Part shown: positions 9,469 through 39,035 of the stretch, piece by piece
How positions within the stretch are numbered: the stretch's first letter is position 1
Layout: every line of letters begins with the position of its first letter
DNA from: Thermoproteota archaeon
Lineage (GTDB): Archaea; Asgardarchaeota; Jordiarchaeia; Jordiarchaeales; Freyrarchaeaceae
Length of the DNA stretch: 53,500 nt
Reading direction: 5' to 3'
NCBI GenBank assembly: GCA_029258835.1
Contig: JAPDJY010000033.1
Coordinates: 1 to 53,500, forward strand
Position numbers and translations under genes: made by a program
Notes under the pieces: generated by a model
Seen by the model: only the letters and a program-made list of their open reading frames with translations
Databases searched by the model: none
Told to the model about the DNA's origin: nothing

Positions 9469-10008
9469 TTATGTAAATTGTTTTTTGATTTCTTCTTCTT
9501 GGAATATGCTTTCCATTATTTCATTTACTAGTGCTTCGCTGTGAAATCGGAGCATGTAATCTGGTGGTATGAGTTCAACATCTACAACACTTAGTGGGTT
9601 TATGCTGCCAATGTAAACTACTTCTCCGTCTATGATTACACTTTTAAAGTGGAGGCGACGTACTTCTATGACTTCCATTCCTGCTTCCTTAAGTTTTTCG
9701 ATACATTTTACATGATTTTGGTCTTTAACTTGATCAGCTGGTCTAACGGCGACTATGAATCTTACTCCTTTTTCAATGGATTGTTTAACTTCACGCCAGC
9801 TGAGAAAATTTTTAACTCTGGTGTAAGTAAGATACGGCGAGAAGATTAGGACATATTCTTGGGAATTATTTATGTCTTCACTTAAAGAAGCATCAAAGTG
9901 CTTTGAGTCGAGGAACTTAGTAGTAGCCTTAAATACTTGTTCTTTTAACCTCTTCAAAATGGGGCCTTTTTTAAACCTATCTTCGATGATTTTTTTAAAT
10001 AGTGACAT
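9469..10008 (-). CDS. Phospholipase D-like (single HKD) nuclease-family protein
   Basis: IFSPYL motif and HFKSVIIDGEVVYIGSIN (HxK x4 D x6 GSxN). Confidence 0.85.
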   Translation of the reverse strand: MSLFKKIIEDRFKKGPILKRLKEQVFKATTKFLDSKHFDASLSEDINNSQEYVLIFSPYLTYTRVKNFLSWREVKQSIEKGVRFIVAVRPADQVKDQNHVKCIEKLKEAGMEVIEVRRLHFKSVIIDGEVVYIGSINPLSVVDVELIPPDYMLRFHSEALVNEIMESIFQEEEIKKQFT

Positions 10009-30731: not shown

Positions 30732-32000
30732 TTACCCCTTCAATTTTAATCCCTTCTGGCACATTTTTGCAACGGTTTTTATTTTCTCTTCACTGTACTT
30801 AAGTAGTAGCATGCCGTTCTCTTTTTTGACTTTAACGGTGTTTCTTTCAAATCCTGAGTGAGCTAGAAAGTTTCTTTCATCGATTTCTCCTATTTTTCTC
30901 CCTATTACGCTATTGTACGTTTGCCAGTCTCCGACCTCTTTCCCCTCTAGATCCGTTTTTAAGGAGTGAATGTCATTCTCGATCCTCTTCTTTAAGCGTT
31001 CATCGAATTTGAAAAGGTTTTCTGTTAAGCTTTCGATCTCGTTGAGTGATACTTCCTTTTTCTGTGAAGAAACTAATCCTTTATCGCTTAGTAACGATGC
31101 AATCATGTAGGCGAAAACGTAGACTTTAAGGTCGTTTCCCATTCTTACTCGTCTCGTTACTCTCAGTTTACCCTGGCTTTCAACCTTCACATACTTTTCA
31201 TACAAGTTCAAAGTTGTAAGTATGGTCTCCCTTAACCTGCTTTTTTCAGGGTAGAACCTGAAGAGGGCGAGGGGTAAACCGTTGTATAACGCTCCGATGA
31301 AGGCTGAAAGCTCTAAATCGTCTATTTCCCTAACCTTCTTTAACTCATCCTCGAAAAGCCTCCTTCTCTCGTCGGGGCTTAGGTTTAATGGCTCTAACGG
31401 CCTTTTCTGGGTGATCTTTTCAGTGAAGGGTGTTGGGGTGGGGGCTGACTCCTCTATTACGTTGATGGAGAGCTTATCCGTTGCCGACGGCAGTGATGGA
31501 TCCGCGTTATACGCTGTAAACCGGGCTTCCTTGAAGATAGAAATGGCTTCCGCCATTTCTCTAATAGCCTTATAGGTGAGGATCGCCGTGTAGTTTATGC
31601 CATGGGTTAAATCAAGATGTATGCTCAGCGTGTCACCTACGTGTTCGAGAAGGATGAATGCGACCCTTGCAATAACGTAATAGTAGTAGTCGAGTGCTCC
31701 TCCGTGGAAGGCTCCCCTCGGAAAGACTCCTACTCCCGGAGCTATTAGCACCTCGTAGCCTTCCAGCCCGAACCTGTCAGCGTATTCCCTTATCTTCTCC
31801 TCAGCGTCCACCTTCACATCATGATAGTTTCCCCCTTTCTCTGCGAGCGTATCTAAACCGATTATTACCGTTCTATCCGGGTCTATAGCGTCCTGAAGAA
31901 CCCTTAACGAGGTATACGCCTCTGCACTCTTTCCACCAAACACGTAAACCACCCTCCTCCACCCACCCGGATCCCCCCACGGGGCTATTAAGAGCTTCAT
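30732..32000 (-). CDS. csx1: CRISPR-associated CARF-HEPN ribonuclease Csx1
   Basis: APWGDP, DLTHGINY (DxTHG), YNADP and HEPN RNFLAHSG. Confidence 0.95.
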   Translation of the reverse strand: MKLLIAPWGDPGGWRRVVYVFGGKSAEAYTSLRVLQDAIDPDRTVIIGLDTLAEKGGNYHDVKVDAEEKIREYADRFGLEGYEVLIAPGVGVFPRGAFHGGALDYYYYVIARVAFILLEHVGDTLSIHLDLTHGINYTAILTYKAIREMAEAISIFKEARFTAYNADPSLPSATDKLSINVIEESAPTPTPFTEKITQKRPLEPLNLSPDERRRLFEDELKKVREIDDLELSAFIGALYNGLPLALFRFYPEKSRLRETILTTLNLYEKYVKVESQGKLRVTRRVRMGNDLKVYVFAYMIASLLSDKGLVSSQKKEVSLNEIESLTENLFKFDERLKKRIENDIHSLKTDLEGKEVGDWQTYNSVIGRKIGEIDERNFLAHSGFERNTVKVKKENGMLLLKYSEEKIKTVAKMCQKGLKLKG

Positions 32001-32005
32001 GTCCC

Positions 32006-33025
32006 TTACACCTCGAAGTACCCGTAGCCGGCAGACGTCCTCGCGCCGATGCCGCAGCTTTCCAGCGCCTCCCTGAGCAGGCGTTTCGCCTCTCCAACTA
32101 GGTCCCTGTCCCTTGACGCTAAGGCGAACCTGAACTTCACTCCTTCCACGGCTAGGAAGAACACTGGGCTCGGCTTCACCCAGTCTCCCGGAGGCGTTCT
32201 GCCGCTCCTATCTTGGTAGTACTCCTTGTAGTGCACGTTCACGACGTCGAGGACTATGAAGCACTCGTTTTCCCCGCTTAAAACGGGTAGAGCATCGAAA
32301 AATATTACCTTCCCCTTTTGGCTCCGCGCCCCGAACACGTCAATTAACGTCTTAAACTTAACCCCGTCCACCTCGACGCCCAAGTCTTCACCCTTCTCAA
32401 GTGCCGCGTCCACCCTCCTAGCGGCATCCCCGTAGGGGGTTCCCTCCAGCTTCTGGATGGCTCTGGCAAACTTTCGAATGGACAGGTGCCTCGTAGCACC
32501 CTTCACAGCGCTCCCCGGAATGTAGGGAACCGAGTAATTCCTGTGGAGGAGTAGGGATGCCTCGTAGATGCTTGCGGCACCCAGGTTTACAGCGAGCCTC
32601 CAGCTGAGAGGGAGCCCTGACCGCTCATCAGGCAGATACTCCACGTGGAACCCCATTTCCCCCAGCGTGCTGAGCATCCGGGTCATCCTACTCATGTATG
32701 ACTCGTAAACGCTAAGTGGAACCGCGTCGACTGGTACACATAGCCTCCCGTCCTCCGCCAGCCTCCTCCTGAACTCCCCGTTGGGTATGCTGAAATCCCC
32801 TAACAGTCCTTTCACCTCTTGGGGGTCACGGCAAACCTTCCTGAGAAGGGAAACCTGGACGTCTAACCCGTGCTCCCACCTGCCCTCCTCGTCATCGTAA
32901 CACCACAACACGTACTTGTCAAGGAATAGCCCAAGGTTTAGCTCTCTGCCTTTCACGGCGCCGGCCACGACGTCGACAACCTCCCCAGCCGGCCTCTTAG
33001 AGGAGATGAAGCCCCTCATCATCAC
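32006..33025 (-). CDS. cmr6: Type III-B RAMP Cmr6
   Basis: PYIPGSAVKG, GKVIFFDALP, DVVNVHY, P.P..FLAV and GIGARTSAGYG. Confidence 0.95.
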   Translation of the reverse strand: MMMRGFISSKRPAGEVVDVVAGAVKGRELNLGLFLDKYVLWCYDDEEGRWEHGLDVQVSLLRKVCRDPQEVKGLLGDFSIPNGEFRRRLAEDGRLCVPVDAVPLSVYESYMSRMTRMLSTLGEMGFHVEYLPDERSGLPLSWRLAVNLGAASIYEASLLLHRNYSVPYIPGSAVKGATRHLSIRKFARAIQKLEGTPYGDAARRVDAALEKGEDLGVEVDGVKFKTLIDVFGARSQKGKVIFFDALPVLSGENECFIVLDVVNVHYKEYYQDRSGRTPPGDWVKPSPVFFLAVEGVKFRFALASRDRDLVGEAKRLLREALESCGIGARTSAGYGYFEV

Positions 33026-33096
33026 CCATCACCCATCACCCATCACCCATCACCCATCACCCATCACCCATCACCCATCACCCATCACCCATCACC
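33020..33096. repeat. Perfect 7-bp tandem repeat x11 (CATCACC; GGTGATG on the coding strand)
   Basis: Eleven exact units counted, spanning the cmr5 stop and the cmr6 start. Confidence 0.97.
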
Positions 33097-33510
33097 CAGC
33101 TCCGCTTCTGCAAACCTCTTCATCCAGCCGAGTAAAGCTATAATTTCCCTCGCAGCATGGAAGACCATCGTTGATGGCGTGTCCTCTCCGGTCATCCACT
33201 CAAGGATATCCCTCCCCTCTTTAAACCTCTTCCTGAACCAGCCGTTAAGGTGCTCGTAGACCAGCTTATAGGCTTTCCCCTCGGTGCTCATCCCTCCTTC
33301 CCCCCTCTTCAAGTCAGGCTCAAACTTAGACCTGTAAAAAGCCATGGTGTTCCCTAAACCGTTTACCTGAATGTAAGATGCCGCCCTCCTAACACACGAC
33401 TTGTACCTTCCCTCCAAGTCAGCATCTCCCTTTACTTCTCGAATGCACTTCCACGCGTATCTAGCTCTTTCCTGCTCAAGGAGCCGCAGCACTCCCCACC
33501 CCTCCTTCAA
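33085..33510 (-). CDS. cmr5: Type III-B small subunit Cmr5
   Basis: LEQERARYAW, IQVNGLGNTMAF and WMKRFAEA. Confidence 0.93.
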   Translation of the reverse strand: MKEGWGVLRLLEQERARYAWKCIREVKGDADLEGRYKSCVRRAASYIQVNGLGNTMAFYRSKFEPDLKRGEGGMSTEGKAYKLVYEHLNGWFRKRFKEGRDILEWMTGEDTPSTMVFHAAREIIALLGWMKRFAEAELGDG

Positions 33511-34432
33511 CCATCTTCACCCTCACAAACCCCCTCCCAACGGTCTCGCCTCCTCCTACCTGCAGTATCCTCCCCCCGTACCTCTTGAGCAACTCCACGA
33601 CGTCCCCGGCCCCCCGCGCGCCAAGCCTGCTCGGAACTAAAATCACAGAGTACATTATGGTGTCTGCCGGCAGATACTCCTCGGACCACAGTCCACCCGC
33701 CTCCACAGTTCCGGTTTCAGGGCTTACCTTAACCCTCGTAACAACCTCCGTCGTGAATAACACCAGGTCTCTGAAAACATCGTCGGAAACCACGATCAGG
33801 TCTCTTCTGAGCTTCTCCCTAACCTCCCGGTAGACTTCACCCTCCGGCACCGCCCCCACCACCTCCTCTGCGACGGCGTCTACGACGCTATCCCTCTCGC
33901 ACTTTAACTGTAAATCCTCTACATAAACGTACTCTTCTGCCTGCGATCGCGTGCAGACCATGGCTTCCTCGCAGCCGGCAGGCTTCGGAACAATCCAGTT
34001 AGCCTTGACGCCGGCTAACTCCAAGTCCCTTCTATACCTGTCCAGAACCAGTGGGCAGGTAATCCAGCTGAACACGCCTTTTAACGTTCTAACGGGGAAC
34101 GCGAGAACCCTGGCGTCGGTCACCGTGACCCCGCCGGCTCCATTACGTGCACCGAATATTTGACTGCAAAGTTCGCATGCCTCCCTCACCTCGCCGGCCT
34201 CCCTTACCGGGCACCGCCCACACTCATCGCTCAGCGCGATGCCGCCATCCTTGCTGGCCCCTTTGGGCGCACTCCTCAACACGCCTTTAAGCGAGGATCC
34301 CCGTATGATCGGGAACCCGGTGTGCCTCTCCCTCTGTATCGGCAGGTCGGCAACCTCGCTGACGGCCAAGCCGCCTCCCGGATGCAGCGGGGTTTCCGCG
34401 TACATGTACATGACTAAGGCTTTCTCAAACAT
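33476..34432 (-). CDS. cmr4: Type III-B RAMP Cmr4
   Basis: AETPLHPGGG, DLPIQRERHTGFP (catalytic Asp retained), DARVLAFPVR, LWSEEYLP and QVGGGETVGRG. Confidence 0.96.
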   Translation of the reverse strand: MFEKALVMYMYAETPLHPGGGLAVSEVADLPIQRERHTGFPIIRGSSLKGVLRSAPKGASKDGGIALSDECGRCPVREAGEVREACELCSQIFGARNGAGGVTVTDARVLAFPVRTLKGVFSWITCPLVLDRYRRDLELAGVKANWIVPKPAGCEEAMVCTRSQAEEYVYVEDLQLKCERDSVVDAVAEEVVGAVPEGEVYREVREKLRRDLIVVSDDVFRDLVLFTTEVVTRVKVSPETGTVEAGGLWSEEYLPADTIMYSVILVPSRLGARGAGDVVELLKRYGGRILQVGGGETVGRGFVRVKMVEGGVGSAAAP

Positions 34433-34453
34433 GTTACCACCTTGCGAAGCCAA

Positions 34454-34986
34454 ACCTTAAATCGGGCGTTTTCATCGGAACCTCCACCGGTAAGCCAAGC
34501 CGCCTCCACCCTCTCCGTTAAGTAGACGGCTCCAGCATCCACCACTTCCACAATGGCTTCTCCTACGATAGGACGCAGCCGCCCATCTTAACTTGTCAAC
34601 TAGCCATGAAAGAGCATCACGCAGCATTCCAGCACCCCTCCCGGCAACCTCATCCCGTAACCCCTCTTCTTCAAAAGCATTTTAACATTTTAACCATCGC
34701 ATATTCGCGTACATTCTCCCTGCACCACTCCTTTGCACCCTCCATCTAATTTTTCGGCGAGATCGTAAATGAACCTACCGGAGAGCTTCCCCTTTCTCCC
34801 TCCGTCCAGGCGCCTCTATCACCTACGAACCCCTCTTAAACCCGCAACTTGCCCACTGGATGTAGCACCGTGAACGCTTCGCTAAGGCTGCGCGAAACCC
34901 CCCTTCTTTTCCTTTTTTCTCCCTCCATCGCACCTTCAACCTTACCTGGAGGGGTGTGGAGGGGCGCTTACTCCGCTAGAAGCCAT
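34454..34986 (-). pseudogene. Collapsed remnants of cmr2/cas10 and cmr3
   Basis: ATG coupled to the upstream stop, then fragments F*RSK..APLHTPPGK (cf. Cmr2 LHDPP), LHPVG and KLSGRFIYDL, followed by Cmr3-like LRP..VVDAGAVY..SDENAR. About 0.5 kb in total. Confidence 0.65.
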
Positions 34987-35384
34987 CACCCCTCCTCCTC
35001 GATCCTCCTCTTAATCTTCTCATACACGTCTTGCAGACAGTCGACGTACTCGTTTTTAATTTTCCTGAAGATTTCACGGGCTTTCTCCATTTCGTACGTG
35101 TGTACAAGAGTGTTCCTGTCCTCTATCATCTCCATCCAGAGACGCTCATCTTCTATGATCTCAACCCGGCGTGCTTCTCTGAACGTGTCACGCGGCGACC
35201 TACAGATTATGCCGACATCAGCCAGGTACTCCTTTATAAGCTTCCATACGAGCTCGTAGCATAGCTCAAACCGCTTAATAGCGCCGTCAACTTCAATGTC
35301 TGTCCGTGCAACCTCAACCCCCTCCCTGAGGTTTCGTAAAGCCTTCTCGTAGTTAGTGAAGTACCGTTTAACCCTCTCTCTCAT
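34986..35384 (-). CDS. HI0074-family HEPN (nucleotidyltransferase substrate-binding) toxin
   Basis: DGAIKRFELCYELVWK, SPRDTFREA and DRNTLVHTY (Rx4HxY). Confidence 0.92.
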   Translation of the reverse strand: MRERVKRYFTNYEKALRNLREGVEVARTDIEVDGAIKRFELCYELVWKLIKEYLADVGIICRSPRDTFREARRVEIIEDERLWMEMIEDRNTLVHTYEMEKAREIFRKIKNEYVDCLQDVYEKIKRRIEEEG

Positions 35385-36735
35385 ATATGACCACCCCTTC
35401 CCTCTCCATCAACTCCTCTACGTCCTTAGAAGTCCTCCTCAACCAAACGATGTCCACGGGGATATCCTCCCTCATGACCGGCTTCTCGGAGTCAACCGCC
35501 AGGTCGATGTCTGCACCCCTATGAGCATCCCCCCTAGCCCTGGAACCGAAAAGAACGATCCTCCTCGGGTTCACCTCCCTCCTAACCCTCTCAACTATCT
35601 CATCCAGCACGAGAGGCGTAAGCAGAACCCTCTCGCACCCTGCTCTCCTCACCTCGCCCCAAAAGCCGTCTATAGCCGTATAATCCGGCTTCTGCGTAAC
35701 CCTCCCGTCGGTAACCACCCAGCCCTCCGGCAGAAACTCCCCTGAAAGCCTTATTAACCCCCAGTAGTAGCTCCCCCCAGACCTGAACACCTTAAATATT
35801 AACGGGGATGAGCGCCTATCCACCCTCCTACCCCCCTCATCCCTCCCGAAAACCGTAACTTTCCCGTGGGAGACCGGGAGGCCGAAAACGGCCATGTCCA
35901 AGTAGTTTCCTCTGTGCTCGAATCTATACCTCTCATACCTCTTCCCTATATCGTTCAAGGCGTCCTTCCAGGAACTCCACGCCTTCCCTGACACGATGAT
36001 CCGCGAAAGACACAGGTTCGAGTACCTGGTTGAGAAACCCCTCGGCTTCTCGCCGTCGTTCACGATCCTCACGGCTTTCTCCACGTTTTCCACAACCCAG
36101 TCAACCACCCTCCTAGACCCGTCCTTGTTAAGGGTGAAGTCCAAGCCGGTTAGGGAGGACGCATAATCCGGCGCTCCCCCCCGGGGTGAAATGGTTAAGC
36201 CTCCAGCCCCCCTTCTAGCCCTAGCGCCGAAGTTCCCCAAGTATACTGCACACCAAAAGCACGCTAACACCTTCCTCAACACGTCCTTGTCATCACAGCT
36301 TAAGTCCACTGTAAACCTTGAACCCGGCTCTATGAACGGCCTCCCAGCGTCAACCACCCCCCCGGCCGTAACCATTAAAAGATACGCAACACCCGAATCC
36401 TCCCCCGTAACCCTACGATTCACCTCGTCAAACCCCACGTTTAAACCCATCCTCTCGCTAACCTTAAGCCTCCCCTTAACGCCGCTTCTCACAGTAACCC
36501 TGCTTTTAACGAGCGAAGAGCCAAAAACCTTCTCCTCCTCACGCAGCAACTCCCGTAAGTTATCGGTCGCCTTCAAAGCCCTAAACCACCACCTCAGCAC
36601 ACCCCTCAAACTCGGCGCCCGTAAACCCTCACCCTCCACGCTCCTCTGATCCGCACCGGCAATAAACAGGGGAGTTACACTCTCCAGCTCAAAGGCCACC
36701 CTCACGTCTTCCAACCCCCAACACGGCTCCAACAC
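35368..36735 (-). CDS. cmr1: Cmr1 RAMP fused to C-terminal MNT domain
   Basis: VTPLFIAGA, LRAPSLRGVLRWWFRA, GNFGARARRGAG, FGLP and RRSSPL, then in frame IVLFGSRARGDAHRGADIDLAV...EGVVIYE. Confidence 0.92.
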   Translation of the reverse strand: MLEPCWGLEDVRVAFELESVTPLFIAGADQRSVEGEGLRAPSLRGVLRWWFRALKATDNLRELLREEEKVFGSSLVKSRVTVRSGVKGRLKVSERMGLNVGFDEVNRRVTGEDSGVAYLLMVTAGGVVDAGRPFIEPGSRFTVDLSCDDKDVLRKVLACFWCAVYLGNFGARARRGAGGLTISPRGGAPDYASSLTGLDFTLNKDGSRRVVDWVVENVEKAVRIVNDGEKPRGFSTRYSNLCLSRIIVSGKAWSSWKDALNDIGKRYERYRFEHRGNYLDMAVFGLPVSHGKVTVFGRDEGGRRVDRRSSPLIFKVFRSGGSYYWGLIRLSGEFLPEGWVVTDGRVTQKPDYTAIDGFWGEVRRAGCERVLLTPLVLDEIVERVRREVNPRRIVLFGSRARGDAHRGADIDLAVDSEKPVMREDIPVDIVWLRRTSKDVEELMEREGVVIYEREG

Positions 36736-37110
36736 ACCTCAAGAAGAACTTCAATACGCCAACATCAGCCCTCCACCTTAAAACCGGTAGAACACGACGC
36801 CAACGCGAACACAAACTTCAGTCTTCCACCCTCCACGGCCAACCTAAGCCAAACCCAAGCCGCCCCATTGAACTCCTTAAGCAGCTTACAGCAACGCCAC
36901 TATTTAAATCGAACTCCACCTAATCCCCCGGTCTCCTTCCTCGCCTCCCGGTCATCCTCAAACCCAAGCAACTTCAACCACGTTTAAACGTAAGCACCCT
37001 CAACACGAAGCTACCCGTGCAAGAAAGGTTAAACCTTCACACTATAAAACTTTCCCCCCTCTCAGGCCAGTCAAAAACCTACCTACAGTTTCTACGAGAC
37101 ATCACACGGG

Positions 37111-38421
37111 CTAGTAGCGGGACGGCGCCCCCTCACAGCCCACATCCCCGGTTCTCATGTACCTTTCAATCATTTCCGCGATCTTTTCCTGTCTCTCCCA
37201 CGCCCCGTAAACCTTGCCCTTGCAGATGAGGCTGTTAATCGCCTTTCTGAGCTTCCCGCTCACCCGTCCAGCTGGCGCCTTCGCGAACGGCGTCTGGGGT
37301 AGCGGCATGAACGTGTGCGCGTGTATCCTCGCACCCATCTCCGCCAGCTCCTTCATGACCTTTATGGTTTGCTCGGCGTCCTCCTCGGTCTCCCCGGGGA
37401 GGCCGAAGATGAAGTCCACGTTCGCCTTTAACCCCGCCTTCAAGGTCAGCTTCACAGCGTTGTAAACGTCCTCGACGCTGTGCCCTCTATGACACGCGTC
37501 TAGAACCCGCTGGCTTCCCGACTGCGCCCCTATCACCAGGTTGTCGTTGCTCGCATACTTTAAAACCAGCTCCACCGTCTCCTCTGTTACGTGTTCTGGC
37601 CTAACCTCTGAGGGGAAGGAGCCTATGAACAGCCTCCCCTTCGGCCCGACGGCCTCCCTTACGCCTTCAAGCAGCTCCTCCAGCCTCGCAACATTTAATC
37701 TTTTCCCGTCTGGCGACCCGTAGGAGAACGCGTTGGGCGAGGTGAACCTGACGTCTGTGAGCCCCCTCCTCCTCATGACCTCCACGTACCTGCAGACCTG
37801 CTCCACGCTTCTATGCCTCACACGGCTGCCGAACATGCGCGGCGTCTGGCAGAAGTAGCAGGCGAAGGGGCACCCTCTGGTTATCTCGATTGGGCCGAAC
37901 ATGCCGTGCCTGGCGGCGAACGGGGGATACCTGTCCAGGTTGACAGGCGGCCTCCAGCCGGTAAACCGGTATTCCCCGTCGAAGTACGCAACCCCCTTAA
38001 CGTCAGCGTAGCCTTCATCGCAGTCGAACCTTTTAAGCAGCTCGGCCAGGGTTTCCTCCCCTTCCCCCCTCACAACCACGTCAAACCCCATTCTAAGGGT
38101 TCCCTCCGGATCCCCTGTCGGGTGTGGTCCTCCCGCAACGTACAGCGCCCTGTCAGCGTATTTACGCCTTAACTTCTTAATCAGCTTGCACACGTCCCAC
38201 AGCTGAGTTGTGAAGAAGGAGAACCCAACAATAACCTTCTCATGCCTTTCGATCACTCCCCCCAGCTTTGAGGCAAGCTCCCCTCCGTGCTCCACGAGGT
38301 AAACGTTCAGGTTGTTGAAGTACTCGTCCCCTTCTAGGGCGCCGACCAGAACGTTAAACCCGTACCTGTTCGGCTTATCGTAGTACAGGACGAGGGCGGT
38401 GTCGTGGATCACGGCTGACAC
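37111..38421 (-). CDS. B12-binding-domain radical SAM protein (TIGR04013-like)
   Basis: AGGPHPTG, GEGE, EITRGCPFACYFCQT (CxxxCxxC) and FPSEVRPE. Confidence 0.92.
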   Translation of the reverse strand: MSAVIHDTALVLYYDKPNRYGFNVLVGALEGDEYFNNLNVYLVEHGGELASKLGGVIERHEKVIVGFSFFTTQLWDVCKLIKKLRRKYADRALYVAGGPHPTGDPEGTLRMGFDVVVRGEGEETLAELLKRFDCDEGYADVKGVAYFDGEYRFTGWRPPVNLDRYPPFAARHGMFGPIEITRGCPFACYFCQTPRMFGSRVRHRSVEQVCRYVEVMRRRGLTDVRFTSPNAFSYGSPDGKRLNVARLEELLEGVREAVGPKGRLFIGSFPSEVRPEHVTEETVELVLKYASNDNLVIGAQSGSQRVLDACHRGHSVEDVYNAVKLTLKAGLKANVDFIFGLPGETEEDAEQTIKVMKELAEMGARIHAHTFMPLPQTPFAKAPAGRVSGKLRKAINSLICKGKVYGAWERQEKIAEMIERYMRTGDVGCEGAPSRY

Positions 38422-38627
38422 CCAGCCTTAACCGGGTAGCACTCCGCTAAAAATCTTCTCTTCAAATCTTCAAGGAAGTCAGCGAAGCCTTAAATACCTT
38501 GTAGGGTGGTAGTACCCTAACGGTGCCAATGGCTAGCTGGGCGAGCGCCTTCAGCATCGAAGGCCTCATTAGGCCTGTAGACCTCTCAGGAGGTGACGGT
38601 GCCCGTGGTGAACTTAACTATCTGCTT

Positions 38628-39035
38628 TTAAGCAGTTTTCAGCCCGGTCCTGAACTTCACTACTTCCACGTCCAACCCTTCGAAGTGCTTGTCGTCCGTC
38701 ACGACCTTAGCACCAACGGAGTAGGCGCTCGCCGCTATCAAGGCATCGGCAATTGGAATCGCTTTCACCTTGTACTCTCCCGCCTTTAATGCCACCTTCT
38801 CGTCTATTGGAACCACCTTCAAGTTTGACAATCTTATTTGCTCCACCCTCTTCCTAGCGACTTCTCCTCCAACTCTTCTCGAGTAAAGGTAGTAAATCTC
38901 TGTCAGCGTGATGGAGCTTATGAATCCTTCTGCCTTGTCCTCGTCAACTTCTCTCAAAAGTTTCTCCACGAACTCTGCTCCCTCCTCATTGTTGAAGAAT
39001 GCAATCAGCGCTTTAGTGTCGAAGAGGTACCTCAT
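38628..39035 (-). CDS. vapC: VapC PIN-domain toxin
   Basis: YLFDTKAL, ITLTEIYY, IADALIAA and VTDD. Confidence 0.92.
   Translation of the reverse strand: MRYLFDTKALIAFFNNEEGAEFVEKLLREVDEDKAEGFISSITLTEIYYLYSRRVGGEVARKRVEQIRLSNLKVVPIDEKVALKAGEYKVKAIPIADALIAASAYSVGAKVVTDDKHFEGLDVEVVKFRTGLKTA

Follow-up and report, generated by a model that had tools for sequence, protein, structure and literature searches.

Can the antidote to a toxic RNase be carried by a subunit of a CRISPR effector complex? This question is raised by a type III-B CRISPR operon in a stretch of 53,500 nucleotides, here called the window, which comprises positions 1 to 53,500 (forward strand) of contig JAPDJY010000033.1 in GenBank assembly GCA_029258835.1. 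The source is a Thermoproteota archaeon placed by GTDB in the Asgardarchaeota (Jordiarchaeia, Jordiarchaeales, Freyrarchaeaceae). In this operon the effector subunit Cmr1 is fused to a minimal nucleotidyltransferase (MNT) domain resembling the antitoxin MntA, and the next gene encodes a HEPN protein resembling the toxin HepT. Our preferred explanation, held with moderate confidence, is that the two genes form a toxin-antitoxin addiction or guard module wired into the Cmr complex.

The Cmr1-MNT fusion and its HEPN partner

The fusion gene (cmr1-MNT, or Cmr1-MntA) lies at 35368-36735 on the minus strand. It is a single frame of 455 codons with no internal stop and encodes 455 amino acids from a GTG start; the JGI gene call begins 7 codons downstream. 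The Cmr1 part (35620-36735, minus strand; residues 1 to ~372) contains two RRM/RAMP domains and ends in a helix (353-363) and a strand (366-370). Profile TIGR01894 (Cmr1) matched residues 17-182 with 56.5 bits (cut-off 28.65) and PF03787 (RAMPs) matched the Cmr1 part with 49.6 bits. The MntA-like MNT domain (35371-35619, minus strand; residues 373-455) was matched by PF01909 and PF18765 over residues 377-455. Its catalytic motif GSx10DxD was read from the sequence as G397-S398-x10-D409-x-D411 at 35503-35547 (minus strand). The initial annotation had claimed one frame running from Cmr1 into an intact GSx10DxD motif, and this agrees with the profile matches and the uninterrupted frame.

The fold of the fusion protein was modeled with AlphaFold2 on the basis of 28 homologues. 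The mean predicted local distance difference test score was 85.9 and the predicted template modeling score (pTM) was 0.89. There is no linker in the model, the final Cmr1 strand (366-370) leading directly into the first MNT helix (375-388). Cmr1 relatives that are not fused stop near residue 366. The top Foldseek matches to the model were Cmr1 structures (9l7c_A, 4w8x, and 4l6u; E-values 2e-18 to 2e-15) with target-normalized template modeling (TM) scores of 0.66-0.72. Those of Archaeoglobus fulgidus and Pyrococcus furiosus gave TM scores of 0.71-0.72 with the target fully covered. The Cmr1 part is complete and untruncated, since both the Cmr1 profile and the two-domain Cmr1 fold were matched. 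The window protein is thus a complete two-domain Cmr1 with an MNT domain attached rigidly at its C-terminus. A close Cmr1 relative of 782 amino acids (P0132; 36% identity over residues 12-352) ends in an AAA_21/AAA_15 (AbiEii/OLD-like) ATPase in place of the MNT domain. The Cmr1 C-terminus seems to be a recurrent docking point for accessory modules.

The HEPN gene follows at 34986-35384 (minus strand) and encodes 132 amino acids. It matched PF08780 with 117.7 bits and TIGR01987 (HI0074) with 109 bits (cut-off 55.8). The closest solved structures are the HEPN toxins 8xdj and 8yuf, and the PDB matches had E-values of 1e-8 to 3e-17. The motif R-N-x3-H-x-Y is present as R90-N-T-L-V-H95-T-Y97 at 35094-35117 (minus strand) and combines the RNase motif with the tyrosine equivalent to the HepT AMPylation site. 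As summarized in PMC13000451, which cites Yao 2020 and Songailiene 2020, MntA oligo-AMPylates the tyrosine beside the Rx4H motif of HepT. The end of the fusion gene and the start of the HEPN gene share 17 nucleotides (35368-35384, minus strand), which was read as translational coupling. An overlap with an HI0074-type HEPN gene carrying Rx4HxY had been noted in the initial annotation and was confirmed by the 17-nt overlap, the TIGR01987 score, and the presence of R90, H95, and Y97. The order of antitoxin followed by overlapping toxin is the type VII layout. The third acidic residue of the MNT domain, D428, is conserved in at least 90% of 28 fusion proteins. Only one PF08780 gene, the window HEPN, was found in the genome, and the fused MNT domain is therefore its sole plausible cognate. 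Judged by its sequence, the pair carries every hallmark of a candidate HepT/MntA (type VII) toxin-antitoxin system. Complex prediction for the MNT domain (residues 345-455) and HEPN gave a score of 0.00; controls were not run, and the result counts neither for nor against binding.

Conservation of the fusion and its place in the Cmr complex

The fusion was looked for in other assemblies, read sets, and genomes. Three assemblies from other samples (L009, L097, and L098) are 94-99% identical to the window in nucleotide sequence. They have the identical fusion, overlap, downstream layout, and gap before cmr4. The junctions recur unchanged in Logan contigs of three public DNA runs; one X1 contig covers 33400-36800 without a gap and one X2 contig covers 33400-35750. 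A contig from an RNA library (X16) spans only 36511-36786, which is insufficient to claim transcription. Confirmation of the junction in raw reads had been proposed in the initial annotation, along with a search for fusions in other genomes. The former was obtained from the assembled Logan contigs, not raw reads, and from the three further assemblies. The latter found many homologues, which excludes a one-off event.

A word-indexed search gave ~43 clusters (90% identity) in which RAMP and NTP_transf_2 domains occur in one protein of 420-470 amino acids. An exhaustive search of 50% representatives gave ~20 full-length fusion clusters. The clusters span several bacterial phyla and archaea, complete genomes included, and named sources are Caldisericum, Thermodesulfovibrio, and Dissulfurispira. 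A scan of genome contigs added at least two further fusion loci (L012 and L014), the sources being a Caldanaerobacter metagenome-assembled genome (MAG) and a Nitrospirota MAG. The suggestion that the long frame is artificial, through loss of a stop codon, a frameshift, or chimerism of the assembly, draws on the estimated 6% contamination of the source MAG and the uneven G+C content along the contig. It carries a negligible probability, since four assemblies and the contigs of several public runs share the frame, ~43 homologous fusion clusters exist, and the structure of a homologue is solved. Neither a lost stop codon nor an assembly error can be the origin of the fusion.

An alignment of 28 fusion proteins (32-63% identity to the query) shows no variation at the catalytic residues G397, S398, D409, and D411 or at L371 and P374 of the junction, which indicates that the fusion occurred once, long ago, and has been kept by selection. 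In an alignment of 12 HEPN partners R90, N91, H95, and Y97 are invariant. The invariant MNT residues would also suit an older view of HI0073/HI0074, modeled on kanamycin nucleotidyltransferase, in which the two proteins form one enzyme with MNT as catalytic subunit and HEPN as substrate-binding subunit. The substrate would then be a nucleic acid or nucleotide at the Cmr1 end, such as the crRNA 3' end or target RNA fragments, and not the HEPN protein. In Cmr complexes Cmr1 occupies the end where the target is captured and where the crRNA has its 3' terminus, and the Pfam family of the HEPN protein is named 'nucleotidyltransferase substrate binding protein like'. Against this, the invariant Rx4H with its adjacent tyrosine is the signature of a toxin and AMPylation acceptor, and every characterized MNT-HEPN pair works as a type VII toxin-antitoxin (PMC13000451). 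We regard the two-subunit enzyme as quite improbable.

A homologous fusion is already represented in the PDB. Entries 9z7q, 9z7v, and 9z7x contain a 438-amino-acid chain named "Cmr1-MntA" by the depositors, whose sequence is that of P0035 from locus L006 of Dissulfurispira thermophila. Window residues 13-455 align with residues 4-434 of this chain (E-value 6.7e-89, ~38% identity). The same entries hold the Cas10/Cmr2 of D. thermophila, which shows the homologous fusion to be one of the subunits of an assembled Cmr complex. The tethering of the antitoxin to the Cmr complex, which had been inferred from the window sequence, is supported by this co-deposition. A literature search found no paper describing a Cmr1-MNT fusion, the name 'Cmr1-MntA', or these three entries. 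The architecture and the membership in the Cmr complex are known to at least one laboratory through the PDB, and the arrangement is not new in kind.

Gene neighborhoods were inspected in ten independent lineages (the window species, L005, L006, L007/L008, L010/L096, L012, L014, L092, L093, and L094). An HI0074-type HEPN gene directly follows the fusion in all ten, which answers the question raised in the initial annotation of whether it always does so. Of the nine overlaps measured, eight are 17 nt (the window species, L005, L007, L012, L092, L093, L094, and L096) and that of L006 is 29 nt. In eight of the ten lineages the HEPN gene is followed by cas10, cmr3, sometimes a CARF gene, and then cmr4, cmr5, and cmr6. 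Mean pairwise identity is highest in the module for HEPN (0.59), followed by MNT (0.52), Cmr1 (0.47), and Cas10 (0.38). The pairwise divergences of these four are correlated (r 0.48-0.84), consistent with a fusion that arose once, long ago, and with a module inherited as a unit. In a Desulfurobacteriaceae MAG (L062) the closest free-standing relatives of the two halves are neighbors in an ordinary MNT-HEPN pair adjoining lon, which shows where the cassette came from.

Other MNT genes were seen in III-B operons. A Bacteroidales MAG (L054:903-4692) encodes cmr1, a free-standing MNT, cas10, a further MNT, and a HEPN protein of another family (PF05168), apparently an independent origin. In L092 (17380-19286) a second free-standing MNT-HepT pair lies right after cmr6 and is followed by a Card1-type CARF nuclease.

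Loss of cas10 and cmr3 and the fate of the remaining genes

The closest relative is L096, which is ~60% identical and has an archaeal gene context. Its operon has the exact gene order of the window and also ends with csx1, apart from cas10 (891 amino acids) and cmr3 (395 amino acids) between HEPN and cmr4. At this site the window has a non-coding gap of 532 bp (34454-34985) with no credible open reading frame (ORF) and no significant remnant. The same gap is present in L009, L097, L098, X1, and X2. Neither cas10 nor cmr3 was matched on the window contig by tblastn or profile searches, leaving it short of a complete III-B effector, and both are missing in every assembly of the window species.

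Three weak pairwise tblastn matches to the gap were in the expected order and strand (E-values 0.009, 0.03, and 0.4 in a 560-nt search space). These were not taken to show a cas10/cmr3 remnant, as profile hidden Markov models built from eight family members did no better than on shuffled sequences, of which 6 and 7 in 100 reached the score. Because the weak matches were unsupported by profile searches, cas10 and cmr3 are considered to have been deleted cleanly and in one piece. The decay of both genes proposed in the initial annotation was not borne out; they are absent without recognizable remnant at the place where L096 has both.

Downstream of the gap, all on the minus strand, are cmr4 (33476-34453; TIGR02580, 233.6 bits), which is intact in all strains, cmr5 (33085-33510; TIGR01881, PF09701), cmr6 (32006-33025; TIGR01898, 166.2 bits), and csx1, which encodes a CARF-HEPN protein (30732-32000; TIGR01897, 247.7 bits). 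The upstream neighbor of the fusion gene is an unrelated B12/radical-SAM gene. Selection on cmr4, cmr5, and cmr6 was assessed by comparing the window with L097 and L098, all of which are without cas10 and cmr3. There were 13.5-15 synonymous and 8.5-9 non-synonymous differences. The ratio of the proportions of non-synonymous and synonymous differences (pN/pS) was 0.18-0.19 with P ~5e-5 against neutrality; the comparisons with L097 and L098 are interdependent, and unseen complete operons may have contributed by recombination. On these sequence differences cmr4, cmr5, and cmr6 appear to evolve under purifying selection in a species without Cas10. For csx1 the amino acid identity to the strains was 83% and pN/pS was 0.24. 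The fusion and HEPN genes differ by 1-3 nucleotides between strains, too few to give the ratio of non-synonymous to synonymous substitution rates any power. The initial annotation had offered the toxin pair as the reason why cmr1 stays intact. As cmr4, cmr5, cmr6, and csx1 are intact too, the pair alone is insufficient to explain what is retained.

A perfect 7-nt repeat (CATCACC on the plus strand, GGTGATG on the gene strand) lies between cmr5 and cmr6 at 33020-33096. There are 11 copies in the window and 3 in L097 and L098, which makes this a simple repeat of variable length at the cmr5/cmr6 junction. Nucleotide identity between the window and L097/L098 falls from 98.8% to ~94% at the repeat. 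The protein identity of 83% for csx1 compares with 98-99% for the neighboring cmr genes, and this looks like replacement of the csx1 allele by recombination at the repeat. On the other side of the fusion gene, the sister strains have a 1.4-kb insertion between the VapC-like PIN and radical-SAM genes (window 38421-38628 versus L097:3185-4822). It contains an orphan MNT gene of 114 amino acids and two small ORFs, all absent from the window.

The host genome is archaeal, as a DNA polymerase D large subunit is present. Methyl-coenzyme M reductase, sought in it as a taxonomic probe, was absent from the matches. It is a MAG, and the fusion was found in 1 of 11 genomes of the order and 1 of 400 of the phylum. 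Horizontal acquisition is the simple reading of this locus. The G+C content of the contig is patchy, at 28-40% up to position 10,000 and 45-60% over most of the remainder; this step means that the MAG contig either contains a foreign island or is chimeric, and it does not affect the locus under study. Further type III loci are present in the genome, namely a complete divergent III-B locus on contig C49, a locus on C16, and a Cas10-like gene on C2. On C2 (149770-153475; L099:2871-6576) a PIN gene of 141 amino acids overlaps the 3' end of the Cas10-like gene, which encodes 1097 amino acids, and a RAMP gene follows. Large CRISPR arrays are present on other contigs, and the window contig has none. 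No Rfam family and no element resembling the three repeat types of the genome was found in the window or the 532-bp gap. A CreA-like mini-array was considered and is unsupported by these searches.

Other states of decay were seen in two lineages. A type I cas operon and a CRISPR array of ~25 repeats (estimated by eye) precede an intact fusion gene and an intact HEPN gene in L093 (GCA_900175155), and every catalytic residue of the two is kept. No cas10, cmr3, cmr4, cmr5, or cmr6 lies within 9 kb of them. This orphan pair lends some comparative support to addiction or guarding. In the sister lineage the HEPN gene (L010:1805-2188, L096:11364-11717) has an 18-nt in-frame deletion which removes the conserved helix just before Rx4H. 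The L096 copy has an additional 1-nt frameshift deletion, possibly a sequencing error. The MNT domain and all cmr genes are intact in L010 and L096. The pair can thus survive the loss of the effector, and the effector the loss of the toxin, two outcomes typical of toxin-antitoxin modules.

These states also bear on whether the pair is simply a passenger, that is, a selfish cassette which inserted between cmr1 and cas10, fused by chance, and has no role in CRISPR, the window locus being a dying remnant. Thermophiles are rich in MNT-HEPN pairs, which are mobile cassettes (PMC3632139), the free-standing pair most similar to this one (L062) has no CRISPR context, and the essential cas10 and cmr3 have been lost from a contig without a CRISPR array. 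The rarity of the fusion in the phylum is also consistent with a passenger. However, the junction, both catalytic centers, the gene order, and the 17-nt overlap were kept through ~60% sequence divergence and a cross-domain transfer, which is unexpected if neutral. The low pN/pS of cmr4-6 likewise argues against a dying remnant. A passenger without function is clearly unlikely.

In a further reading the set without Cas10 and Cmr3 (Cmr1-MntA, HepT, Cmr4, Cmr5, Cmr6, and Csx1) is a working derivative kept by selection, with the tethered MntA/HepT switch as its direct output. The crRNA-guided Cmr backbone would act by itself or with Cas10-Cmr3 supplied by another type III locus of the genome. AMPylation would cease once the complex bound a target or was damaged, and the HEPN RNase would be set free. 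If true, this would be an abortive-infection arm of a type III system independent of cyclic oligoadenylate (cOA). We consider such a derivative improbable.

More generally, the HEPN RNase could be an output of the III-B complex and more than an addiction toxin, kept in store on the MNT domain at the Cmr1 end in an AMPylated or bound state. Target RNA binding, attack by an anti-CRISPR, or consumption of ATP by Cas10 would halt re-AMPylation or release HEPN and cause cOA-independent abortive infection. This is possible but unlikely. In its favor, the position of the pair in the operon is constant across phyla, conservation of HEPN exceeds that of the core Cas proteins, and the fusion is rigid (pTM 0.89) with an invariant junction. 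MNT-HEPN was apparently built into III-B operons independently at least one more time (L054; a second pair also follows cmr6 in L092), and purifying selection on the gene set without Cas10 would suit an active output. On the other hand, the link from target binding to MNT or HEPN activity is conjectural, and in known Cmr structures a long distance separates Cmr1 from Cas10. L010 and L096 have a degenerating HEPN gene beside intact CRISPR genes, and the orphan L093 pair without a Cmr backbone fits plain addiction better.

A proposed addiction or guard module and its relation to known systems

The preferred reading remains a toxin-antitoxin addiction or guard module within the Cmr complex. The window locus would be an archaeal, horizontally acquired copy of a conserved III-B variant with the full order cmr1-MntA, hepT, cas10, cmr3, (CARF), cmr4, cmr5, cmr6. 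A pair of the HI0073/HI0074 type would have been captured once and its antitoxin enzyme fused rigidly to the Cmr1 C-terminus. By analogy with HepT/MntA systems, the MNT domain would use ATP to oligo-AMPylate Tyr97 beside Rx4H and so keep the HEPN RNase silent. The fusion implies that the antidote would exist only within Cmr1, and that loss, truncation, or destabilization of cmr1 would free a stable RNase. The state of the Cmr complex could also influence control of the toxin. With the antitoxin as a structural subunit of the Cmr effector, the module would be addictive and toxin control would be tied to the effector. In the window species cas10 and cmr3 would have been deleted together while the fusion-HEPN pair, cmr4-6, and csx1 persisted. 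The pair outlasts core cas genes in two decay states (the window species and L093), which fits what is expected of an addictive element.

Several points weigh against this reading. Toxicity, AMPylation, and HEPN binding are predictions for this family. Scores for the NCBIfam equivalogs were below the cut-offs of 60 bits (NF047752 MntA, 33.9 bits; NF047751 HepT, 24.7 bits). The pair belongs to the HI0073/HI0074 branch, to which AMPylation is an extrapolation. The HEPN partner of D. thermophila is in no PDB entry. The toxin appears dispensable in L010 and L096, since it is degenerate there with the CRISPR genes intact. Addiction would protect cmr1 only, and the loss of cas10 and cmr3 was not prevented here. 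The retention of cmr4-6 under selection is likewise unexplained by the toxin-antitoxin pair.

If the reading is true, a CRISPR effector subunit is the antidote to a co-encoded RNase, which would make this a protein-level counterpart of CreTA. Such a module could stabilize a type III locus that is costly to keep, or penalize inactivation of the locus by, for instance, anti-CRISPRs. With the structure of a homologous complex solved, the idea is open to direct testing. To the structures the window adds a crossing between bacteria and archaea, a toxin which is the most conserved part of the module, two decay states, and a sister lineage losing its toxin. The comparative decay series and the selection on the backbone without Cas10 are the useful additions.

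The nearest known system is the PDB Cmr1-MntA of D. thermophila (L006). It shares the end-to-end architecture, the junction, and the GSx10DxD motif, and in that genome an overlapping HI0074-type HEPN gene and then cas10 follow. The window copy differs in being archaeal and in an operon without cas10 and cmr3, and the deposited entries contain no HEPN chain. The type VII HepT/MntA systems (Shewanella oneidensis SO_3166/SO_3165, the Aphanizomenon flos-aquae HEPN/MNT, and that of Legionella) have the same upstream MNT with GSx10DxD and the same overlapping HEPN with Rx4H and tyrosine. In contrast, the window antitoxin is the C-terminal domain of a CRISPR effector subunit, both proteins of the pair score below the family cut-offs, and the toxicity and AMPylation of the HEPN protein are predicted. 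The window HEPN is in the subfamily of HI0073/HI0074 of Haemophilus influenzae (1jog), Thermus TTHA0048/TTHA0636, 8xdj, and 8yuf, but these are free-standing two-gene modules with no CRISPR link.

Among CRISPR-associated systems a survey of type III accessory genes yielded no toxin-antitoxin pairs (Shah et al., 2018). The closest concept in the literature is CreTA, an RNA toxin-antitoxin described as safeguarding type I-B Cascade (Li et al., 2021, Science 372:eabe5601, as cited in bioRxiv 10.1101/2023.03.03.530964). In both cases a toxin in a cas operon would be restrained only while an effector component is present, making the effector addictive. CreTA consists of RNAs and acts by Cascade-dependent transcriptional repression, whereas the module described here is a protein fusion with presumed enzymatic modification, and the two share no homology. 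FhepTA (PMC13000451) also has its antitoxin as a covalently attached regulatory domain, but its MNT is fused to its own toxin and not to a Cas protein. Craspase (Cas7-11 with Csx29) likewise holds an effector enzyme physically on a type III complex; it carries a protease and has no toxin-antitoxin logic.

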